DNA of 64,000 bases from Patescibacteria group bacterium (GCA_036726225.1 DAIMCS010000002.1:123743-187742); one strand, 5' to 3'. Positions 234 to 56,969 are shown, counted from the stretch's first letter. Numbers and translations are program-made. The notes: generated by a model from the sequence alone, not told the origin.

Positions 234-3200
234 ATGAACAAAATATTACAAGTGTTAAAACCTCAAGTTAGTTTACCAATTGCCCTGGCCATTTTAGTTG
301 GCTTAAGCGGCGTTTTTGTAATGTCGCCAAGGGCCTCCAGAATTGTAAAAGCCGAAAATTGTAACAATGCCCCTTCTGTAGCGACTTTAAACTTTTACCC
401 GGTTACCTGGGGAAACGTTGCGGGTGTTAACTGTTTGGATTTTGCTCCTATATCTATAAGAAACGTAAACAATCCTAATTACGCCCCGAGCGTTTCTGCC
501 CAGCCCGGAGAAGAAATGTATGTAAGTATTTACGTACACAATGGCGCCAGACAAGATGGCGACCCAAACCAAACCACAGCCCAAAATGTAAACGGGAGCA
601 TTTCGCTTTCCGGCAATACCATTTCCACAAGTTTTGCAGGTTCTAATACCAACACCAAAACTGGTGATGTCACTGTAGATATGCCTTCCGGTGCGACTTT
701 GGAAATTATTCCGGGTACAGAGGAATTTTTTGACTATCAATTTAGACCCATTTCCAAAAGTGTCAATTTAACTACTACCGGCGGGAGTTTTAATTTAGGT
801 GATATGCTCGCCTGTTTTGAATATTCCATTCAGCTTCGTTTTAAAGTAAAAGTTGTCGGGGCGGCTGCAGGCACAGGCAATATTGACGCGCAGACAAAAG
901 ACCAAAACTGCCCGGCCGGCAATTACAACGGCATTGTAAGCTGGAATGTTAGCGGCGGCGTTACCCAATCTGCCGTTTATGTCGATGATTTAAATGACAA
1001 CTTAGGCCCGCAATATTTTAGCGGTGAGCTTTGGGCTGAAAACAAAGCAATCTCTTTAATTCCAAACCATACTTTTGTTTTTACTCTCTATTCTGTTCAA
1101 AACGGAGTTGAAACTAAAATCTCTGAGGATTCCACCGGCGTTGTACCTGCGCTTAATTGCGGCGAGGATGCCACCGGAAATATTGATGTAGTCGTGCAGA
1201 GTCAAAACTGCCCGGCCGGCAATTACAACGGCATTGTAAGCTGGAATGTTAGCGGCGGCGTTACCCAATCTGCCGTTTATGTCGATGATTTAAATGACAA
1301 CTTAGGCCCGCAATATTTTAGCGGTGAGCTTTGGGCTGAAAACAAAGCAATCTCTTTAATTCCAAACCATACTTTTGTTTTTACTCTCTATTCTGTTCAA
1401 AACGGAGTTGAAACTAAAATCTCTGAGGATTCCACCGGCGTTGTACCTGCGCTTAATTGCGGCGAAGGCCCCACCACTTTAGTTTGTACGCCCCAAACGC
1501 AGACTGTAAATTCCGGAGCCCAGGCAAGTATTACTGCCAGCGGAGGCACTGCTCCATATTCATGGAAAGAAGGCGGCGTAGTAGTCAGCACACAGCCTAC
1601 CATTACCAGGACTTATACCAACCCTCTAACCTCTACTCAAACCAATACGCTTACTGTTTCAAGCTCAGACGGTCAAACTAAAACTTGTATTATATATGTA
1701 AATGGAGTTAGCGCTCCGCAAAGCGCCAGTATTGTTATAACTAAAGATGTCAGAAATATTACCCAAAACCAGTCTACTTTTGTGGATTCTACATCTGCCA
1801 AACAAAACGATACTTTAGAATACCGCATTGTGGTATCGGCAGGCAGCTCTGTGGCTTTAAACAACGTTGTTGTAACCGACACCTTTGCATCCGGCTTAAC
1901 TTATTTAAGCGGTTCTATTAGGGTAAACGGCCAGCCGCACAGCGCCGGGCTCTCCAGCGGGGGATTAACTTTCTCTTCTGTTAGCCAGGGTTCTCCGTTA
2001 ACTATTACTTACCAGGCCACAGTTAACGCCTCCAGCGGCACTATTGTAAATACCGCTAAGGCCACTGCTTCTAATTCAATCAATTTTCCTAGCGATACTG
2101 CAACTGTAAACGTAACTACGAATCCGGTTTCAGTTAATTGTACTGCTAATCCGACCGTTATTAATATAAACGGTTCAACTACTTTTTCCGCCTCAGGCGG
2201 CAATGGTTCTTATTCTTGGACTGTAACCGGCGGCAGTGTAACCAATTCAACTCAACAAAGCTTTAACTCAACTTTCAACACTGCGGGCACTTTTATAGCC
2301 ACTGTCTCCAGCGGCGGCAATTCCGCCACCTGTAACGTTGTTGTAAACAGCAACCCTAACAATTTAGTTTGTTATGCTAACCCATCTGTAATAAGCTCCG
2401 GTCAAAGCGTGACTTTTACTGCCTCAGGCGGCAGCGGATCTTATACTTGGCATGACAACGGCAACACTTATTTCGGCAGCTCTTACACACCTAACCCAAA
2501 TTACATTAACAACTCTACAGGGTCTATTACCCGCACCGTAACTGTAAACAGCGGCGGCCAAACCGTGCAATGCAGCGTTACTATAAACGGTATTAGCAAC
2601 CCGGGCCAGGCCATTTTGAACATTTCCAAAATGGTCAGGAATACAAACGGCGGCGCTTATCAAAATAGCGTGACCGTAAATACTAATGACACTGTCCAGT
2701 TTGAAATTGTTGTAACCAACAACGGCAGCCAGACAGCAAACAATGTCCGCGTAACTGACAACCTAACTAACGGGTTAAGCTTAGTGCCGGGCAGCGTAAC
2801 TGTTGACGGTTCATACGCTTCTGATTCCACTATCTATTCAGGAATGTATTTAGGCAACTTAGTCCCCGGCCAACAAAAACGAATTAATTTTCAGGCCAGA
2901 ATTAATTCCACCGGTTCTTCCAGCATCCAAAATGTTGCCGTAGCCAACTCCGACAATGCGGGCAGCGTACAAGCCAGCGCCTGGGTTTTTGTAAGCCAGG
3001 TTTCTGGAGGTAATGTAAACTTAAATTACAGCAAGCGCGCTTTCAACGAAACTAGAAATGCCGATGCTACCACTGTTACTGCGCAAAGAGAAGACTTTAT
3101 TACTTATACTTTAACTGTCAACAACAGCGGCAATACACCTGCAAATAATTTCGTCATTACTGACGACCTAAGTCAGGTTTTGCAATATGCTGATATGGTG

Positions 3201-3512
3201 GACAATGGCGGGGGTAGTTTAAACGGCAGTGTTATAAATTATCCGGGTATAACTGTTCCGGCCGGCGGTAGCGTATCGCGCAGCTTTAAAGTGAGAGTCA
3301 AGTTCTCGCTTGCCAGCAACCTTAGCTACACTATGACTAACACTTACGGCAATACCGTAACTGTCAGAATTAACACTCCGCAGGTTTTAGGCAACTTTGT
3401 TGCTCCTAAGACCGGTGCGGAAACTGCGGCTTTCAGTTTTGCAGGCATATTTACCGGCGCTGCAGCGCTTATTAGAAAAAGAAAGTATTTAATGAAGCTT
3501 ATCTTTACTTAA
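234..3512 (+). CDS. Large secreted cell-surface protein with DUF11-type 'conserved repeat domain' modules and Ig-like repeats; C-terminal sortase-like sorting signal
   Basis: N-terminal signal peptide (KPQVSLPIALAILVGLSGVFVMSP). Repeated modules of type VVTDTFASGLTYLSGS / VTDNLTNGLSLVPGSVTV typical of DUF11. The C-terminus is VAPKTGAE + hydrophobic stretch + RKRK, resembling an LPXTG-type cell-wall sorting signal. A terminator follows. Confidence 0.8.
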   Translation: MNKILQVLKPQVSLPIALAILVGLSGVFVMSPRASRIVKAENCNNAPSVATLNFYPVTWGNVAGVNCLDFAPISIRNVNNPNYAPSVSAQPGEEMYVSIYVHNGARQDGDPNQTTAQNVNGSISLSGNTISTSFAGSNTNTKTGDVTVDMPSGATLEIIPGTEEFFDYQFRPISKSVNLTTTGGSFNLGDMLACFEYSIQLRFKVKVVGAAAGTGNIDAQTKDQNCPAGNYNGIVSWNVSGGVTQSAVYVDDLNDNLGPQYFSGELWAENKAISLIPNHTFVFTLYSVQNGVETKISEDSTGVVPALNCGEDATGNIDVVVQSQNCPAGNYNGIVSWNVSGGVTQSAVYVDDLNDNLGPQYFSGELWAENKAISLIPNHTFVFTLYSVQNGVETKISEDSTGVVPALNCGEGPTTLVCTPQTQTVNSGAQASITASGGTAPYSWKEGGVVVSTQPTITRTYTNPLTSTQTNTLTVSSSDGQTKTCIIYVNGVSAPQSASIVITKDVRNITQNQSTFVDSTSAKQNDTLEYRIVVSAGSSVALNNVVVTDTFASGLTYLSGSIRVNGQPHSAGLSSGGLTFSSVSQGSPLTITYQATVNASSGTIVNTAKATASNSINFPSDTATVNVTTNPVSVNCTANPTVININGSTTFSASGGNGSYSWTVTGGSVTNSTQQSFNSTFNTAGTFIATVSSGGNSATCNVVVNSNPNNLVCYANPSVISSGQSVTFTASGGSGSYTWHDNGNTYFGSSYTPNPNYINNSTGSITRTVTVNSGGQTVQCSVTINGISNPGQAILNISKMVRNTNGGAYQNSVTVNTNDTVQFEIVVTNNGSQTANNVRVTDNLTNGLSLVPGSVTVDGSYASDSTIYSGMYLGNLVPGQQKRINFQARINSTGSSSIQNVAVANSDNAGSVQASAWVFVSQVSGGNVNLNYSKRAFNETRNADATTVTAQREDFITYTLTVNNSGNTPANNFVITDDLSQVLQYADMVDNGGGSLNGSVINYPGITVPAGGSVSRSFKVRVKFSLASNLSYTMTNTYGNTVTVRINTPQVLGNFVAPKTGAETAAFSFAGIFTGAAALIRKRKYLMKLIFT
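903..1465 (+). repeat. Perfect tandem duplication (2 x 300 bp period, 263 bp identical) inside the adhesin gene, in frame
   Basis: Positions 903-1165 are identical base-for-base to 1203-1465 (checked line by line). They encode NCPAGNYNGIVSWNVSGGVTQSAVYVDDLNDNLGPQYF...VVPALNCGE twice. Confidence 0.95.
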
Positions 3513-49743: not shown

Positions 49744-49795
49744 TGTCCTGCCAAAGGCAGGACATCTTCTCCCGCTAGGGGAGAAGATAATAATG
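49744..49795 (+). repeat. Twin-hairpin mini-element (tgtcctgccaaaggcaggaca + cttctcccgctaggggagaag + ATAATAATG); its terminal ATG is the annotated secD start
   Basis: Same architecture as 38767-38815 in murB. Confidence 0.75.
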
Positions 49796-51319
49796 AATGC
49801 TATGCATCCAAAACTTAAGATATTTCTGCCGCTATTTGCCATTTTAATTATTACCGCAGCGGCTGTCTGGATAAACCTGCCGCAAGGTTCAAAAATCAAC
49901 TTAACCAAGCTTAAAATCCCTTACAATAAGGAGTTTAGGGTGCGTTTAGGTTTGGACTTGCAGGGCGGTAGCCGTTTGGTTTACCAGGCCGACTTTAAAG
50001 ATATAAAATCGGAAGACCAGGCAGACGCGCTTAACGCCATTCGCGACACAGTTGAGCGCAGGGTTAACAGTTTTGGTGTCAGCGAACCACAAGTGGTGGT
50101 AACCGGCACGGACAGAATTATTGTTGAGCTTCCCGGCATAAAAGATATTAATGAGGCAATAAACCAAATTGGTCAAACACCGTTTTTGGAATTTAAACTG
50201 GCAAACCCAAATCCCACTTCGGCGTCTTTGGATGAGTCGGGCCAGGCAGTTATTAATTCAGATGACCAGTGGATCGCAACCGGACTTTCGGGCAAGCAGC
50301 TTTCCAAAGCAACTGTAGATTTCCAGCAGGGAGCAGGCATAAGCAGCCAGGTGGTAGTGCGCCTGCAATTTAACGACGAAGGTAAAAAACTTTTTTCCGA
50401 AATTACATCGGCTAATATTGGTAAACAAATTGCCATATTTTTAGACGGCCAAATACTTTCGGCCCCCACCGTGCAAACCGCAATTACTGACGGCGTGGCG
50501 ATTATTAGCGGCAACTTTAAAATTGAGGATGCCAAAGAATTAGCAACGCGCTTAAACAGCGGCGCTTTGCCGGTGCCCATTAAACTTATTTCGCAAGAAA
50601 CCGTGGGCGCAACTTTGGGCAAGGAATCGGTCCAGAAATCCGTGGCCGCGGGGCTTATTGGTTTGGTAATGATAGTGCTGTTTATGCTAATTTATTACCG
50701 TCTGCCCGGGCTGCTTGCCGCCATAGCTTTGCTTATTTACGCCGTTGTTTCGTTTGCCGTCTTTAAGATCGGCATATCATTTACCGCTGTGGTTTTAGTC
50801 GGCTTGTTTTTCTTTTTAGGTTTAACCGTAAGCACGTGGTTTGGCGGCCTGGCCCTGTTAAGTTATATTGGGTTGATATTTTTAGGGGGGCTTTCCCCGG
50901 TGACTCTGACTCTAGCCGGCATTGCAGGTTTCATTTTGTCCATTGGTATGGCAGTAGACGCCAACATTTTAATTTTTGAAAGGTTAAAAGAAGAAATTCG
51001 CGCCGGTAAAGAAATCCACAAAGCAGTGGATGACGGTTTTGCCAGGGCATGGCTCTCCATCCGCGACTCTAACGTGTCCAGCCTTATTACCACCGCAATT
51101 TTATATGTTTTCGGCACCCCGAGCATAAAAGGTTTTGCAGTTACCTTGGGAGTCGGTATTTTAATTTCTATGTTTACAGCAATTACAGTCACCCGCACGT
51201 TTTTGAAAATTTTTGTGGGCAACACAATTTTAAGCCATCCTTGGCTGTTTGGAGTAGGTAGAGTAAAATCTAACAGCCAAGATCCAAATACCAATCAATC
51301 TCCAAATATTAATATTTAA
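49793..51319 (+). CDS. secD: Protein translocase subunit SecD
   Basis: Large periplasmic domain plus C-terminal 6-TM region; immediately upstream of secF. Confidence 0.9.
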   Translation: MNAMHPKLKIFLPLFAILIITAAAVWINLPQGSKINLTKLKIPYNKEFRVRLGLDLQGGSRLVYQADFKDIKSEDQADALNAIRDTVERRVNSFGVSEPQVVVTGTDRIIVELPGIKDINEAINQIGQTPFLEFKLANPNPTSASLDESGQAVINSDDQWIATGLSGKQLSKATVDFQQGAGISSQVVVRLQFNDEGKKLFSEITSANIGKQIAIFLDGQILSAPTVQTAITDGVAIISGNFKIEDAKELATRLNSGALPVPIKLISQETVGATLGKESVQKSVAAGLIGLVMIVLFMLIYYRLPGLLAAIALLIYAVVSFAVFKIGISFTAVVLVGLFFFLGLTVSTWFGGLALLSYIGLIFLGGLSPVTLTLAGIAGFILSIGMAVDANILIFERLKEEIRAGKEIHKAVDDGFARAWLSIRDSNVSSLITTAILYVFGTPSIKGFAVTLGVGILISMFTAITVTRTFLKIFVGNTILSHPWLFGVGRVKSNSQDPNTNQSPNINI

Positions 51320-51370: not shown

Positions 51371-52264
51371 ATGTTCAACACTTTAAAATACTACAAACTT
51401 TGGTTTATTATTTCCGGCCTAATTTTGCTTTTTGGTATTGTCTCTCTTTCGGTCTACGGTCTTAAGTTAGGCATAGATTTTACCGGCGGAACTGAAATTC
51501 AGCTCCAATTTAACAACCAGGTGGATATAGGCAAAGTCAGGGAGGCTGCCACTTCCCAAAACATAGGCCACTTCCAAATCCAAACCACCGGCGAAAATGG
51601 GCTTATAATAAAAACCCCGCCTATTGAAAAAGAACAACACGACAAACTGCTTGAAGAAATAAAAAAACAGGCCGGCGATTTTTCCGAGATCCATTATGAC
51701 TCCATTGGCCCGCTTATTGGCAGTGAGTTGAAAAAAAATGCCTTTTTGCAATTATTGTTTGTGTCTTTAGGTATTATTTTTTACATTGGTTATGCTTTCC
51801 GCAAAGTAAGCAAGCCCGTGACTTCCTGGCGCTTTGGCGGAGCGGCAATTATTGCGCTTTTCCACGACTTACTTTTTGTGCTCGGCGTCTTTTCCCTCCT
51901 GGGCCACTATAAGGGCGTGGAAATTGACAGTTTATTTGTGACCGCTATGTTAACCGTGTTGGGTTTTTCAGTTCATGACACAATTGTTGTCTTTGACCGA
52001 ATTCGAGAAAATTTAAGGGTTTACCCGGGACAGGGGATAGAGTTTGTGGTCAACCATAGTATTGCCCAGACTTTAGTCAGGTCACTAAATACTTCACTCA
52101 CAGTTTTGTTCGTGTTATTTAGCTTACTATTGTTTGGCGGAGAAACCATAAGATATTTTGTCCTGGCGTTGTTTATAGGTATTATAGTCGGAACTTATTC
52201 ATCGATATTCATAGCCAGTCCGGTTTTAGTACTTTGGCAAAAATGGAAAACCAGGCAGTTGTAA
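51371..52264 (+). CDS. secF: Protein translocase subunit SecF
   Basis: LGIDFTGGTEIQ motif; 6 TM. Confidence 0.9.
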   Translation: MFNTLKYYKLWFIISGLILLFGIVSLSVYGLKLGIDFTGGTEIQLQFNNQVDIGKVREAATSQNIGHFQIQTTGENGLIIKTPPIEKEQHDKLLEEIKKQAGDFSEIHYDSIGPLIGSELKKNAFLQLLFVSLGIIFYIGYAFRKVSKPVTSWRFGGAAIIALFHDLLFVLGVFSLLGHYKGVEIDSLFVTAMLTVLGFSVHDTIVVFDRIRENLRVYPGQGIEFVVNHSIAQTLVRSLNTSLTVLFVLFSLLLFGGETIRYFVLALFIGIIVGTYSSIFIASPVLVLWQKWKTRQL

Positions 52265-52291
52265 AAACCCCCTAAAAATAGGGGGTTTTTT
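52264..52291 (+). terminator. Terminator hairpin aaaaccccctaaaaatagggggtttttt after secF
   Basis: G5/C5 stem plus T-run, followed by taataat. Confidence 0.75.
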
Positions 52292-52444
52292 AATAATCAG
52301 AAATCAGGCGCAGGGACTATTTACAAAACTCCTTTTAAATAAGACATTATTCGCCCATTTAATTGACAATAATTATAATTTTGTGCTATACTATGGGAAA
52401 TTAATTTTTTCACTTAATTTCCTTTTTCCAGCTTTTTAAATTTT

Positions 52445-53530
52445 ATGGGCATCCTCGACACCATTATTCATACCAAACAAACCGAAAGTTTAAGCCAATT
52501 TAGCCCGTCTGACGTGGTTAAAGAGGTTTTGGAATTGCTTAAAGAGCGTGACAGGAAAATTTTAATAAACCGTTACGGCCTTGAAGGCGGAGAAATAAAA
52601 ACTTTGGCTTCCATTGGCCAGGAGCATAATTTAACCCGCGAACGCGTAAGGCAAATTGAAAAAGATTTAATTAAGAATTTAAAGAAAACCAGTTTGCAAA
52701 AAAAGACATTTGCAGACGCTAAAGATTTTTTGCTGAACATTATTACTGAACACGGCAGGATTATAGCCGAAGAAAGCCTGCTTTTGCATTTGAGCATAAA
52801 AGAGCAAAAAGAACGCAATGCGCTTATTTTTATTTTGCATTTAATTGAAGAGTTGGACCATTTTATCCACCAAAACTATAAAAAGTCCTGGGTGAACGTG
52901 CTTTTTAAAGAAGATTTATTGCACAGTTTTTCCGACGAAAGCAAGAAAGTTTTAGGTGACCAAAATAAGCCCTTGCCGGCGGACGAGTTTTTGGAACATT
53001 TTAAGCAAACCCAGTTTTACCAGGAGCACAAAGAAGACTTAACTGACAAAATTGTTTTAAATTATTTGGAATTGACCGTCCACATACAAAAAAATGTGTT
53101 TGGCCATTGGGGACTTTCTTTATGGAAAGAAGTTAAGCCCAAAGACGTTGGTGACAAAGCTTATTTGGTCATGAAGCACCATAAGCAGCCCGAACATTAC
53201 GCCCAAATTACCGAAATGATTAACAAAGCCAAGTTTGACGCGCGTCCCGCTTACAAAGAAACTGTGCATAATGAACTTATTAAAGATCCGCGTTTTATTT
53301 TAATTGGCCGCGGCATTTACGCCCTTTCTGAATGGGGCTACAAACCCGGCGTAGTTGCCGACGTAATTGCTGAAATTTTAAAGCATTCCGGCCAGCCCGT
53401 GCCAAAAGACAAAATTATTGAAGAGGTATTAAAACGCCGAATGGTGAAAAAGAACACCATATTAGTCGGCCTTTCCAACAAAAAGCTGTTTAAAAAGGTA
53501 GGTAAAAACGCTTACGCATTAGTGGCCTAA
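52445..53530 (+). CDS. Sigma-70 region-4-like HTH domain protein with large uncharacterised C-terminal domain
   Basis: ILINRYGLEGGEIKTLASIGQEHNLTRERVRQIEKDLIKNLKK resembles the sigma factor region 4 HTH; no regions 2 or 3 recognisable. Confidence 0.55.
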   Translation: MGILDTIIHTKQTESLSQFSPSDVVKEVLELLKERDRKILINRYGLEGGEIKTLASIGQEHNLTRERVRQIEKDLIKNLKKTSLQKKTFADAKDFLLNIITEHGRIIAEESLLLHLSIKEQKERNALIFILHLIEELDHFIHQNYKKSWVNVLFKEDLLHSFSDESKKVLGDQNKPLPADEFLEHFKQTQFYQEHKEDLTDKIVLNYLELTVHIQKNVFGHWGLSLWKEVKPKDVGDKAYLVMKHHKQPEHYAQITEMINKAKFDARPAYKETVHNELIKDPRFILIGRGIYALSEWGYKPGVVADVIAEILKHSGQPVPKDKIIEEVLKRRMVKKNTILVGLSNKKLFKKVGKNAYALVA

Positions 53531-53641
53531 GTCCGCTGAATTAACGCGGATAGGAACGCCGAAGAATCGCGGAAAAAATTTTCAGCGTGTGATCAGCGTC
53601 CTCATCAGCGACTCATCTGCGGTATCAGAAATAAAAACGAA

Positions 53642-54994
53642 ATGGAAGTAATAAAAGACATTTTCCCAAATTTTTTTGAAATTTTCCACCTAGCCTTCAG
53701 GTTTATGTTTGAGTATTACGGGTGGGTGCTTTTTGTTATTGGCTTTTTTGTAATGTTCAAACATGAGTACGTGGAAGAAATCCAGGGGCAATTTGTAAGG
53801 AGCACGGAGTGGGTTTTTTTGCAGATTTTAGTGCCTAAGGAAAACAAAACCAGCACACTGGCGGTGGAAAATATTTTCGCGCAAATGCATGTTTTGCATA
53901 GGGGCTTGACCTTCCAGGAAAAATATACAGAAGGCAAATTCCAGCTTTGGTATTCCCTGGAAATTGCGTCTTTTGGCGGCAAGGTTTCTTTTATTATCCG
54001 CACGCCCAAAAAATCGCAGCATTTAGTGGAATCGGCTTTTTATTCCCAATATCCAAACGCGGAAATCCACGAAATTTCCGATTATATGGAAAATTTTAAT
54101 TTAAGCCCGTATGACGATAATACCGAATACGACTTTTTTGGGACTGAATGGAAAACCACCGAAGACAGCGTCATCCCGATTAAAACTTATAAAGATTTTG
54201 AGCATCCATCGGCCGAGGAAAAAATTATTGACCCGCTGACTAATTTAATTGAAACCATGGAACGGGTAAAACCCCATGAGTTTTTAGCGCTGCAAATTTT
54301 AACCCAGCCTATTCAAAACAATGAATGGGAAGACAAGGCAAAAAATAAAATTAAGGAGCTGACAGGGGAAGAAATGGAGCATGGTTTTAGTTTTTTGGGT
54401 TTGCTTATGAAACCTTTTGACTGGTTTGCTAAGTTTAGTTATAAAGAGTTGTTCCAAAGCCATGCGCATGAAAATCCGAATGCCAACAAACCCAGGAACA
54501 ACTGGCTAAATATGACAGAAGCGGAAAAGAAACGTGTTACTTTAATTGAGGAAAAAATTAACAAACCTTGCTATAACTCAAAAATTAGACTCTTGTATAT
54601 TGCGCCTAAGAACGATTTTGACAAAGGCAGGCGTTTTGAATTAATAGGCGCTTTAAGGCATTTAAGCCCCGGAGGCGGATCGGGCACGCATAACACCCTT
54701 AAAGCCGATATGAGTATTTGGACAAAAGTTGACCCGTATTTTTCGCCCGCGCTGGAGGGTCCGGTTATCCAAAGTATGACCAAGTCCAGGAAGTATTGGT
54801 TTTTAAGAGGCTATAAAGCTCGCAGTATGTATGTGGGTTCGCCAAAATTTTTATTGAGCGTAGAAGAGATTGCCACGCTTTTCCATTTTCCAATTACGCC
54901 CGAAGGCGGTATGACGCCGGCAAATGTGGGGACCGTGGCCAGTAAAACTTCGCGTCCGCCGGCAAACTTGCCTGTTGGGGATATAAACCAGTAA
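53642..54994 (+). CDS. Hypothetical protein with N-terminal TM anchor (450 aa)
   Basis: YYGWVLFVIGFFVMF helix; 38 nt upstream of the VirD4/TraD-like ATPase gene, same strand. Confidence 0.55.
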   Translation: MEVIKDIFPNFFEIFHLAFRFMFEYYGWVLFVIGFFVMFKHEYVEEIQGQFVRSTEWVFLQILVPKENKTSTLAVENIFAQMHVLHRGLTFQEKYTEGKFQLWYSLEIASFGGKVSFIIRTPKKSQHLVESAFYSQYPNAEIHEISDYMENFNLSPYDDNTEYDFFGTEWKTTEDSVIPIKTYKDFEHPSAEEKIIDPLTNLIETMERVKPHEFLALQILTQPIQNNEWEDKAKNKIKELTGEEMEHGFSFLGLLMKPFDWFAKFSYKELFQSHAHENPNANKPRNNWLNMTEAEKKRVTLIEEKINKPCYNSKIRLLYIAPKNDFDKGRRFELIGALRHLSPGGGSGTHNTLKADMSIWTKVDPYFSPALEGPVIQSMTKSRKYWFLRGYKARSMYVGSPKFLLSVEEIATLFHFPITPEGGMTPANVGTVASKTSRPPANLPVGDINQ

Positions 54995-55032
54995 TTCCCA
55001 CCAATATCTACTTTTAGTATAGGCAATAAATT

Positions 55033-56925
55033 ATGAGCAACGAACAAGATAAAATTACAGTGTTTGCCAAAACCAACTTCAGGAGCCATGAGGTGCCTTT
55101 TGGCATTAAGACAGACGACAGGCGGAGGCATATGTACTTAATTGGTAAGACCGGCATGGGCAAGACTACGCTTATGGAAAATATGGTTATTCAGGATATA
55201 CGAAACGGGCACGGGGTTGCGTTTTTAGACCCGCACGGCGACAGCATCCAGAGAATTTTAAATTGCGTGCCTGCCAACAGGGTAAACGACGTAATTTATT
55301 TCAACCCCGCAGACCTTGACCATCCTTTGGCTTTTAATATTTTGGAATCGGTCGACCCGCGTTACAAGCATTTGGTGGCCAGCGGGCTTATGGGGGTGTT
55401 TACCAAAATTTGGGCCAACTTGTGGTCAGCCAGAATGGAATATATTTTAAACAACACCATTTTAGCGCTGCTTGATAGCCCGGGCAACACGCTTTTGGGA
55501 ATAACCAGAATGTATGTGGACAAAAAATACCGCAAGAAAATTGTCGACAATGTAAAAGACCCGATGGTCAGGACTTTTTGGACAGACGAGTTTGCAAATT
55601 ACAACGAAAAGTACAGGACAGAAGCCATTGCCCCAATTCAAAATAAGGTCGGGCAGTTTTTGTCTTCGGGAATTATCCGTAATATTGTGGGCCAGCCGCG
55701 CTCAACCATAGATTTGCGGGAAGTTATGGACCAGCAGAAAATTTTAATAATGGATTTGTCCAAAGGCAAAGTCGGTGAGGACAACAGCGCGCTTTTGGGG
55801 GCTATGTTGGTCACTAAAATCCAGCTCGCGGCTATGTCGCGCACGGATATTGAGGAGAAAGACAGGAAAGATTTTTACCTTTATGTGGACGAGTTCCAGA
55901 ATTTTGCCACAGACAGTTTTGCGACAATCTTGAGTGAAGCCAGAAAGTACAGGCTGAATTTAATTGTCGGCCACCAGTACATTGGCCAGCTCGTCCAGGA
56001 AAAAAATACTAAGGTGCGGGATGCAATTTTTGGCAACGTCGGCACGTTAGTGGTGTTTAGAATTGGCGCAGAGGACGCGGAGTTTTTGGTTAAGGAGTTT
56101 GAGCCGGTCTTTACAGAGATAGACATTGTGAATTTGCCTAAGTACCATATACTTTTAAAGTTAATGATCAACGGCGTTGCGTCCGATCCGTTTTCTGCAA
56201 TTACTATGTCGCCTAACCCTAATTACCAGACTGACAATGCCGACAAAGTCATAAAAGTTTCGCGTGAGCGCTACGCAAACCCGGTGGCGGAAGTGGAAGA
56301 AAAAATTTCCCGCTGGATGGGCGCCGAGTACCATCAGGAAGCTGCTATTGTAATTGGCACTGAAGGTGAGACTAAGGAATTGCCTAAAGAACAGAATATT
56401 ACCATTCAACAGCCTAAAATGGTGCAAATCCAACAGCCGGCGGGAGATACGGTAATTGAACAGGTTTTAGAAAAGACGGCTGTCCGCGAGGAAAATGACT
56501 TCGTTGATGAGCCGCATACAGCGCCAAAAGCAGAAGTCCTGCCACCGCCACCGGCTCCGCCTGTACAAACCGCGCATCATTTTAAGCCGCGCGAAGAAAG
56601 GCATCAGCCAAGGCAGGAACACAAACCACACCCGCCCAGGCACAAAGAACCGCCTCACTTTTCCCATAAACCACAATTTAGCAAGCATCACACAAACCCT
56701 AAAAGCCAGTTCCCTCAAAAAAAAGAAAACCCTATTTGGGACAAAGTGCTGGGTTTCCAAAAGGAAAAGATTCAGGAGTCCAAACAAAAGTCCCAAAATA
56801 TTGTCAGCCAAATTGAGTCTATTTCTTTAGAGCCTCCGGCCGCGGCCCAGAGCCAGGCCTCAAAAGCGCCTGTGCCGTCGGTGGACAGAAAAGTATTACG
56901 GCCGGGGGAGTCACAATCTTTATAA
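55033..56925 (+). CDS. VirD4/TraD/TraG-family (type IV coupling protein-like) P-loop ATPase with P/H/K-rich low-complexity tail
   Basis: Walker A LIGKTGMGKTTL followed by AFLDPHGD (cf. the TraD ...VDPNGD motif). Walker B YVDEFQNF. C-terminal PPPPAPPVQTAHHFKPREERHQPRQEHKPHPPRHK. Confidence 0.55.
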   Translation: MSNEQDKITVFAKTNFRSHEVPFGIKTDDRRRHMYLIGKTGMGKTTLMENMVIQDIRNGHGVAFLDPHGDSIQRILNCVPANRVNDVIYFNPADLDHPLAFNILESVDPRYKHLVASGLMGVFTKIWANLWSARMEYILNNTILALLDSPGNTLLGITRMYVDKKYRKKIVDNVKDPMVRTFWTDEFANYNEKYRTEAIAPIQNKVGQFLSSGIIRNIVGQPRSTIDLREVMDQQKILIMDLSKGKVGEDNSALLGAMLVTKIQLAAMSRTDIEEKDRKDFYLYVDEFQNFATDSFATILSEARKYRLNLIVGHQYIGQLVQEKNTKVRDAIFGNVGTLVVFRIGAEDAEFLVKEFEPVFTEIDIVNLPKYHILLKLMINGVASDPFSAITMSPNPNYQTDNADKVIKVSRERYANPVAEVEEKISRWMGAEYHQEAAIVIGTEGETKELPKEQNITIQQPKMVQIQQPAGDTVIEQVLEKTAVREENDFVDEPHTAPKAEVLPPPPAPPVQTAHHFKPREERHQPRQEHKPHPPRHKEPPHFSHKPQFSKHHTNPKSQFPQKKENPIWDKVLGFQKEKIQESKQKSQNIVSQIESISLEPPAAAQSQASKAPVPSVDRKVLRPGESQSL

Positions 56926-56933
56926 CTGCAAAT

Positions 56934-56969
56934 AAAAATTCCCCAAAGGCAATGCCTTTGGGGAATTTT
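56934..56969. terminator. Bidirectional terminator between the ATPase gene and trxA
   Basis: aaaaattccccaaaggcaatgcctttggggaatttt. Confidence 0.75.

Follow-up and report, generated by a model that had tools for sequence, protein, structure and literature searches.

Two conserved genes of Candidatus Doudnabacteria encode the predicted halves of a type IV coupling protein-like ATPase tethered to the membrane

Introduction

Type IV coupling proteins (T4CPs) include VirD4, TraD, DotL and TrwB of R388. TraD and DotL have a long C-terminal tail that ends in a conserved peptide, and T4CP tails serve as docking devices. Here, we analyzed a block of three genes, g1, g2 and g3, at positions 52445-56925 of a 64,000-nucleotide stretch of DNA from a Patescibacteria group bacterium (GCA_036726225.1, DAIMCS010000002.1:123743-187742); this whole stretch is called the window below. 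The names of homologues (Candidatus Doudnabacteria or Patescibacteria) place it on the chromosome of a Candidatus Doudnabacteria, within the Patescibacteria or candidate phyla radiation (CPR). As judged from sequence comparison, g2 and g3 together make up a single ATPase of the T4CP kind, tethered to the membrane and encoded as two genes.

An ATPase of this kind without a membrane domain has been described for pIP501, where the T4CP formed by TraJ and TraI was assigned to class iii of Llosa and Alkorta (PMC7431656). In the Patescibacteria, Quinonero-Coronel et al. reported in 2025 a total of 5,713 VirD4-type T4CP homologues in 2,918 of 3,035 genomes (96%), and stated that exaptation of these T4CPs "cannot be ruled out" (PMC12102498). 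The T4SS (type IV secretion system) described there has a separate TrsD, a remote homologue of the N-terminal portion of VirB4 that is paired with VirB4, and a DUF8128 partner is not mentioned in that paper's text on Patescibacterial T4CPs (PMC12102498).

Results

Layout of g1, g2 and g3

The three open reading frames lie on one strand at the positions given by the initial annotation of this DNA, as a check of reading frames confirmed. The features of the three genes are as follows.

52445-53530, plus strand: g1, DNA-binding protein of 361 residues
53642-54994, plus strand: g2, DUF8128 (PF26449) protein of 450 residues
53804-54931, plus strand: predicted VirB4-like cytoplasmic domain of g2, residues ~55-430
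54956-54973, plus strand: conserved C-terminal PPANLP of g2, residues 439-444
55033-56925, plus strand: g3 reading frame, 630 residues (core 55033-56355, tail 56356-56925)
56887-56922, plus strand: conserved C-terminal peptide of g3, RKVLRPGESQSL, seen in 22 close homologues and in the species loci

Assignment of g3 to the T4CP-type ATPases

The motifs that T4CPs share, namely Walker A, DPxGD and DEF-Q, were all found in g3: GKTGMGKT at residues 38-45 (nt 55144-55167), LDPHGD at residues 65-70, and the Walker B motif FYLYVDEFQNF at residues 281-291, of which D286-E287 is encoded at nt 55888-55893. The protein scored over the Pfam cut-offs of TrwB_AAD_bind, DUF87, TraG-D_C and T4SS-DNA_transf (PF10412, PF02534 and PF12696 among them), and T4CP families of NCBIfam matched it also. 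When the g3 family profile was aligned with R388 TrwB by hhalign, residues 26-376 of g3 paired with residues 118-478 of TrwB over 322 columns (97.5% probability, E 5e-12), indicating homology over the whole nucleotide-binding domain with its all-alpha region included. The same procedure with the R388 VirB4 protein, TrwK, aligned the Walker A stretch only, at 9% probability. A profile search of the PDB ranked TrwB (3.7e-8) and DotL (7.3e-8) ahead of HerA (1.8e-3) and VirB4 (4ag5; 0.74), and no FtsK chain appeared at E<=1. On the TrwB alignment and this ranking, g3 is classed by sequence as an ATPase of the TrwB/VirD4 type and not of the FtsK, HerA or VirB4 type. The initial annotation had offered a choice between T4CPs and FtsK/HerA-like translocases; its first option stands, whereas its second is far weaker.

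Between the Walker motifs, residues ~103-270 of g3 are predicted to be helical, and the profile alignment spans the corresponding region of TrwB. From this alignment and the predicted helices, the g3 core probably carries an all-alpha insertion. No membrane segment was found in g3, whose maximum Kyte-Doolittle value was 1.17. The core is ~60-90% identical across the phylum, and it is followed by a tail of ~190-200 residues with 14% Pro, 6% His and a variable sequence, in which the predicted local distance difference test (pLDDT) score was low throughout. In many classes (L006-L085), the end of the tail follows the consensus (I/L)xPG(E/Q)x(I/V)(K/H)F, while in other lineages an amphipathic helix of the 'ELKKALEEALKK' type stands at this end instead. 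By analogy with T4CP tails, the conserved end peptide looks like a docking device.

Membrane anchor and VirB4-like fold of g2

Hydropathy analysis of g2 gave a single hydrophobic segment at residues ~21-39 (Kyte-Doolittle 1.77), corresponding to one predicted membrane helix at residues ~21-40 (nt 53702-53761), and neither Walker motifs nor a P-loop were found in the protein. The precomputed Pfam assignment of an identical protein and of homologues identified g2 as DUF8128 (PF26449); a search of g2 against our local copy of Pfam gave no match, and a literature search for DUF8128 or PF26449 found no paper. Gene callers differ on the start of g2, at 53642 (450 residues) or 53705 (429 residues). 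Since the first 20 residues are conserved in the family alignment, the longer form of 450 residues is favoured.

The predicted fold of g2 matched VirB4 (TrwK, R388), and no other solved family gave a strong match; the resemblance of the model to EccE was weak beside that to VirB4. With no P-loop in g2 and no score for any other RecA-like ATPase, the match is attributed to the N-terminal domain of VirB4, which it most likely represents. The VirB4 families of Pfam (CagE_TrbE_VirB, AAA_10) matched neither g2 nor g3, and a search of the PDB with the DUF8128 profile returned noise only.

Thus far, Pfam, hydropathy and motif searches bore out the DNA-binding domain of g1, the single transmembrane segment of g2, and the ATPase motifs and Pro/His-rich tail of g3 that had been noticed initially.

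Natural fusions of g2 and g3

The two proteins occur as one polypeptide in many genomes. Single chains of 830-1200 residues carrying both PF26449 and PF10412 formed at least 1738 Patescibacteria clusters at 90% identity, with Berkelbacteria, Patescibacteria group and "bacterium" as the named sources. In a natural fusion of 956 residues, the PPxNLP motif at the C-terminus of g2 is joined directly to the N-terminus of g3. The 824-position profile of PHROG 5156 likewise covers both proteins, with positions 66-287 corresponding to g2 and 398-813 to g3. Accordingly, the initial view of g2 as a separate membrane-anchored protein of unknown kind gave way to one in which g2 is the ATPase's own N-terminal half. 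Since the ATPase of the fused chain must be cytoplasmic, the DUF8128 domain would be cytoplasmic too.

One fused orthologue, P0393 (L093 7001-10159), has in addition a C-terminal S1 domain at residues 895-968 (E 5.7e-20), an arrangement seen in one cluster only. As S1 is an OB-fold (oligonucleotide/oligosaccharide-binding fold) that binds single-stranded nucleic acid, this fusion and the DNA-binding neighbour g1 are sequence-level hints at a nucleic-acid substrate.

Tandem fused DUF8128-ATPase paralogues were observed in a Berkelbacteria locus (L092, 3851-6346 and 7001-9988) and in L094 (2373-4934 and 7001-10543). In both loci, one paralogue (clade B) is the orthologue of g2 plus g3, with an ATPase part 56-57% identical, and the other (clade A) is more divergent (42-43%). 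Between the paralogues lies a conserved protein of 170 residues (L092 6486-7001, L094 5212-5721), the two copies of which are 52% identical; it had no Pfam match and was absent from the window and from 80 species loci. SEML1_0142 of Southlakia epibionticum, a "TraM recognition" ATPase with an unassigned N-terminus of ~380 residues, may belong to clade A.

Relatives on plasmids and phages

Proteins of the same two-part architecture were found outside the phylum. On a 27.6-kb plasmid of Bacillus licheniformis, a transfer cluster opens with a protein of 885 residues (WP_128472464), whose N-terminus aligned with DUF8128 (hhalign, 93.8% probability, E 1.7e-7) and whose C-terminal part aligned with g3. 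Next in the cluster come a Replic_Relax protein, proteins for conjugal transfer, an AAA_10 VirB4 (E 1.9e-116) and a cell-wall hydrolase. As read from its sequence and gene neighbours, the 885-residue protein holds the position of the T4CP in a conjugation module of the Gram-positive kind. No N-terminal hydrophobic segment was seen in the plasmid copy. Related long proteins also stand beside conjugal transfer genes on haloarchaeal plasmids.

Large Bacillus phages encode fused versions as well, including gp156 of phage G and proteins of JL and SPO1-like phages (SP8 QPX71692). Their N-terminal parts matched the g2 model, the fold comparison giving E 6.5e-16 for gp156, and the ATPase parts of the plasmid and phage proteins showed 22-28% identity. 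A tblastn search of phage genomes with g2 found nothing and hhalign of DUF8128 with the SP8 protein was weak (E 0.13), such that the link between g2 and the phages is one of PHROG profile and fold comparison only.

Distribution, gene order and conservation

A scan of species-representative genomes gave at least 441 confirmed DUF8128 loci, and synteny was analyzed in the best 80 of these. They included Doudna-, Kuenen-, Kerfeld-, Yanofsky-, Uhr-, Morani-, Lipton-, Terry-, Magasanik-, Sung- and Gribaldobacteria, Microgenomates and Paceibacterota. As observed, g3 stood immediately after g2 in 57 of 69 testable loci and g1 immediately before g2 in 61 of 70, so the order g1-g2-g3 is conserved phylum-wide; in the fused loci L093 and L094, g1 is still upstream. 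Since this synteny is kept and g3 does not cluster with FtsK, the initial annotation was not overturned on these two points. The median identity to the window was 30% for g2, 37% for g1, 46% for SecF and 64% for the g3 core.

In 39 of 58 loci, secF lay upstream, on the same strand. SecDF adjoins the module even where it is inverted or convergent (L092 10605-12819, L094 11798-14021), but S. epibionticum lacks this adjacency; we regard it as a conserved neighbour only, with no functional link implied. Downstream of g3, 55 loci contained MnmA (12), thioredoxin (11), EF-P (8) or ComEC (5). Because no gene recurs there phylum-wide, the block ends at g3.

The orthologues in Southlakia epibionticum

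Published data on S. epibionticum (Wang et al. 2023) contain what is likely the orthologue of g2 plus g3, SEML1_0293, as suggested by its fused layout and its position beside the g1 orthologue. This protein has 921 residues with PF10412 at 402-719, and belongs to a core, Patescibacteria-enriched family (PMC10633639). It was non-essential at every passage, its normalised reads falling about four-fold from 5817 to 2940 and 1372 (PMC10633639). The g1 orthologue SEML1_0294, directly upstream on the same strand, carries Sigma70_r4 at 27-72 and HARE-HTH at 225-283 and was essential at every passage (Table S1; PMC10633639). In the same tables, the canonical FtsK and SEML1_0142 were essential, ComEC was dispensable, and no ComFA is named (PMC10633639). 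Thus, the linkage of g1 to the ATPase reaches the Saccharimonadia, yet no single essential function is common to both genes.

Domains and role of g1

In g1, residues 29-81 (nt 52529-52687) matched Pfam Sigma70_r4 (E 2.9e-11), and residues 238-297 (nt 53156-53335) matched HARE-HTH (PF05066; E 3.2e-8; 34.3 bits, cut-off 25.9). The TIGR04567 model of RNA polymerase delta scored 37.3 bits, under its cut-off of 42. No match to sigma region 2 was found in Pfam, NCBIfam or PDB matches, which contained region 4 only, and the NCBIfam sigma models gave 30-56 bits against cut-offs of 240-800. With region 4 alone and scores so far under the cut-offs, g1 is not a sigma factor. A literature search on g1 itself found nothing. 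For its orthologue, the domain division that has been published gives a sigma-like tri-helical domain and three winged helices, one of them modelled on a chain of PDB entry 7f75 (PMC10633639).

Because the g1 orthologue is essential and the fused ATPase orthologue is not, g1 must have a separate role, and its essentiality points to a general one, for which RNA polymerase or DNA is the most plausible site. We conclude that g1 probably has its own essential role, likely in transcription. A second role, as an additional DNA-side adaptor of the ATPase through contact with g3, may exist.

Transcription signals and setting of the block

The features that surround the three genes, and the corresponding spacers of relatives, are as follows.

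49793-51319, plus strand: secD, from Pfam of called genes; neighbour of g1-g2-g3
51371-52264, plus strand: secF, from Pfam of called genes; neighbour of g1-g2-g3
52269-52285: terminator after secF, from a sequence scan
52363-52392, plus strand: predicted sigma-70-like promoter on the 5' side of g1 (TTGACA, 18-nt spacer, TG-TATACT; consensus scan 11/12)
53531-53641, plus strand: g1-g2 spacer, an imperfect long hairpin and then an A-rich leader, CAGAAAYAAAAAYG
56935-56969, no strand assigned: bidirectional terminator hairpin between the convergent genes g3 and thioredoxin
L007 5906-6000, L012 2689-2808 and L008 5892-6000: g1-g2 spacers of relatives with long hairpins

The putative promoter of g1 has an extended -10 element and matches the consensus at 11 of 12 positions in the scan. 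At the other end, the strong bidirectional hairpin that the initial annotation had placed after g3 was recovered as a perfect 16-bp stem (-28.1 kcal/mol, z -5.7) between an A-run and a U-run; none of 200 shuffles folded as stably.

The spacer between g1 and g2 folded at -31.4 kcal/mol (z -2.2). Relatives among the Doudnabacteria have stronger hairpins of unrelated sequence at this place (-36 to -46 kcal/mol, z -5.3 to -7.2), and the A-rich leader directly ahead of the g2 start is conserved among Doudnabacteria spacers. The hairpin may uncouple the expression of g1 from that of g2 and g3; the terminator scan gave no terminator-like site in the spacer. TCAGCG repeats in the spacer were rejected as a motif, as 8 of 100 shuffles also matched and the repeats are not kept in relatives. 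An Rfam search of 49-60 kb gave no match.

The remainder of the window consists of core-genome genes, namely those for the cell surface and for glycosyltransferases, AlaRS, ribosomal proteins, RpoA, MurG/C/B, SecA, SecDF, and then MraY, MurD and FtsW. Neither a mobile-element signature nor a paralogue of g2 or g3 was found within the 64 kb. At 234-3512, the window encodes a predicted surface protein of 1092 residues with a near-exact internal duplication of ~100 residues (GNID..QNCPAGNYNGIVSWNVSGGVTQSAVYVDDLNDNLGPQYFSGELWAENKAISLIPNHTFVFTLYSVQNGVETKISEDSTGVVPALNCGE twice).

Discussion

Starting from the observed homology, fold similarity, fusions, synteny and conservation, we propose, as a tentative reading, that g2 and g3 form a domesticated motor of the T4CP kind that supplies a membrane channel with nucleic acid. 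In this proposal, g2 would provide the membrane anchor and a cytoplasmic domain of predicted VirB4/TrwK fold, and g3 would provide the TrwB/VirD4-type nucleotide-binding domain with its probable all-alpha insertion and a flexible tail bearing the docking-type peptide. The protein would be a chromosomal, vertically inherited and near-universal descendant of a coupling ATPase from monoderm conjugation systems. Through g2, a ring of g3, presumably a hexamer, would be tethered at the cytoplasmic face of the membrane, where ATP hydrolysis would drive the hand-over or pumping of a macromolecule, most probably nucleic acid. The channel would be encoded elsewhere; first among the candidates is the Patescibacterial T4SS, which is encoded separately.

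Compared with the known systems, the locus combines shared and distinct traits. The long tail with a conserved end peptide resembles TraD and DotL. In contrast to classical T4CPs, g3 has no membrane domain, the anchor being on g2 or fused, and a VirB4-like domain of ~400 residues stands between anchor and ATPase; moreover, g3 is chromosomal, near-universal and vertically inherited, is far more conserved than its neighbours, and is not beside a relaxase or virB4. As in pIP501, where the adjacent membrane protein is thought to complete the ATPase (PMC7431656), the motor of g3 lies next to a membrane protein; however, compared by description, g2 differs from the pIP501 partner in its 450 residues, its large folded cytoplasmic domain and its fusion to the ATPase in many lineages. 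The predicted fold of g2 is like that of VirB4 (TrwK), and TrsD is also a separate VirB4-N-like protein (PMC12102498), although the attached ATPase is here of the T4CP type and no similarity of DUF8128 to VirB4 is detectable in the sequence. The Bacillus fusions (WP_128472464, gp156, QPX71692 and PHROG 5156) repeat the two-part architecture, but as single polypeptides on mobile elements.

Several observations weigh against the proposed motor. The AlphaFold2 model of g3, built from an alignment of 22 sequences, had a pLDDT of 42 and did not confirm the all-alpha domain or the ring. For g2, the range aligned to VirB4 is itself deduced, and hhalign detected no sequence-profile similarity of DUF8128 to R388 TrwK or to the AAA_10 VirB4 of Bacillus. 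The strong conservation of the g3 core is unusual for coupling proteins. As regards the supposed partner, neither virB4, virB6 nor a relaxase was found in the 64-kb window, so the VirB4/VirB6-like proteins for which the initial annotation had proposed a search are not encoded nearby. Only 148 of the 5,713 reported T4CP homologues are near virB4, and VirB4 occurs in 2,417 of 3,035 genomes (80%), below the 96% of T4CPs (PMC12102498). Furthermore, the S. epibionticum T4SS is essential, but SEML1_0293 is not (PMC10633639).

These last facts are also what speaks for a nucleic-acid translocase that works without a T4SS, in which g2-g3 would drive another channel, for example ComEC, in DNA uptake or nucleotide scavenging, or would export DNA or RNA. 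T4CP homologues being commoner than VirB4 and almost never adjoining it (PMC12102498) fits such a translocase, and the dispensability of comEC in the same screen as the fused orthologue, together with tables that name no ComFA (PMC10633639), is consistent with it. The S1-domain fusion and the presence of ComEC three to four genes downstream in 5 of 55 loci point the same way. However, linkage to competence genes was not consistent over these 55 loci, the relatives outside the phylum occur in conjugation clusters, and the lack of VirB4 in draft genomes may come partly from incomplete assemblies. We know of no T4CP that acts with ComEC, which counts against that channel in particular. On balance, we consider a T4SS-independent translocase possible, though unlikely. 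An ATPase linked to Sec, acting in protein export or envelope assembly in the manner of the FtsK-type ATPases of type VII systems with their membrane partner EccE, is more doubtful still. SecDF is indeed a conserved neighbour and stays adjacent when inverted, and certain T4CPs deliver proteins (PMC12857230). Nevertheless, SecDF is not adjacent in S. epibionticum, the resemblance of g2 to EccE is weak relative to VirB4, the PDB profile search gave no match to EccC or EssC, and no candidate substrate genes recur downstream.

The initial annotation had raised the possibility of a minimal, undescribed translocation apparatus, in which the three genes would suffice by themselves for DNA uptake or effector translocation. 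Their kept synteny, the presence of a DNA-binding protein beside a membrane anchor and a motor, and a block with its own promoter and terminator agree with this. Yet each g2 chain has one predicted membrane helix, no polytopic channel protein is encoded in the block, and a structured spacer separates g1 from g2. Since the g1 orthologue is essential and the ATPase orthologue is not, g1 and the ATPase are not one obligate machine. Neither is the ATPase undescribed, as T4CP homologues away from virB4 were reported for the Patescibacteria in 2025 (PMC12102498). A self-sufficient apparatus is thus very improbable. Least credible, and already largely refuted, is a housekeeping FtsK-like translocase for chromosome segregation or a HerA-type helicase or defence ATPase. 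Such an identity could draw on the cell-wall and division genes (MraY, MurD, FtsW) that adjoin in Doudnabacteria, on the DUF87 match over cut-off and on a PADLOC match to mad8 (E 2.8e-15); g3 belongs to the same ATPase superfamily as FtsK/SpoIIIE and HerA. However, of 16 family members just 2 were matched by FtsK_SpoIIIE (PF01580), with E values of 0.004 or weaker, and there is no gamma domain or four-transmembrane region. The division-gene neighbourhood is limited to Doudnabacteria, and S. epibionticum has a canonical essential FtsK besides. No NurA or defence partner was found, and the ATPase holds a core syntenic position in ~96% of genomes.

Returning to the domesticated coupling motor, its new elements are the DUF8128 second half, the g1 neighbour, the sequence constraint and the relatives in the T4CP slot of plasmids. 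A bolder extension, speculative and at present improbable in our view, would make DUF8128 plus the T4CP-type ATPase a third, hybrid branch of type IV secretion ATPases, with a VirB4-like N-domain and a VirD4-like motor, that was fixed as a core gene by the ancestor of the Patescibacteria. Together with the essential g1, it would then be a chromosomal machine for nucleic-acid import or export in epibiont-host exchange, independent of classical conjugation.

Patescibacteria account for much of bacterial diversity and rely on host cells, with which their exchange of material is little understood. The orphan T4CP homologue present in ~96% of their genomes had been assigned neither partner nor role; it now has an obligate half in DUF8128, and this Pfam family in turn gains a structural context. 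For the T4SS field, the protein may represent an intermediate between VirB4 and VirD4, and SEML1_0293 and SEML1_0294 are the precise genes in which it can be addressed in a genetically tractable strain.

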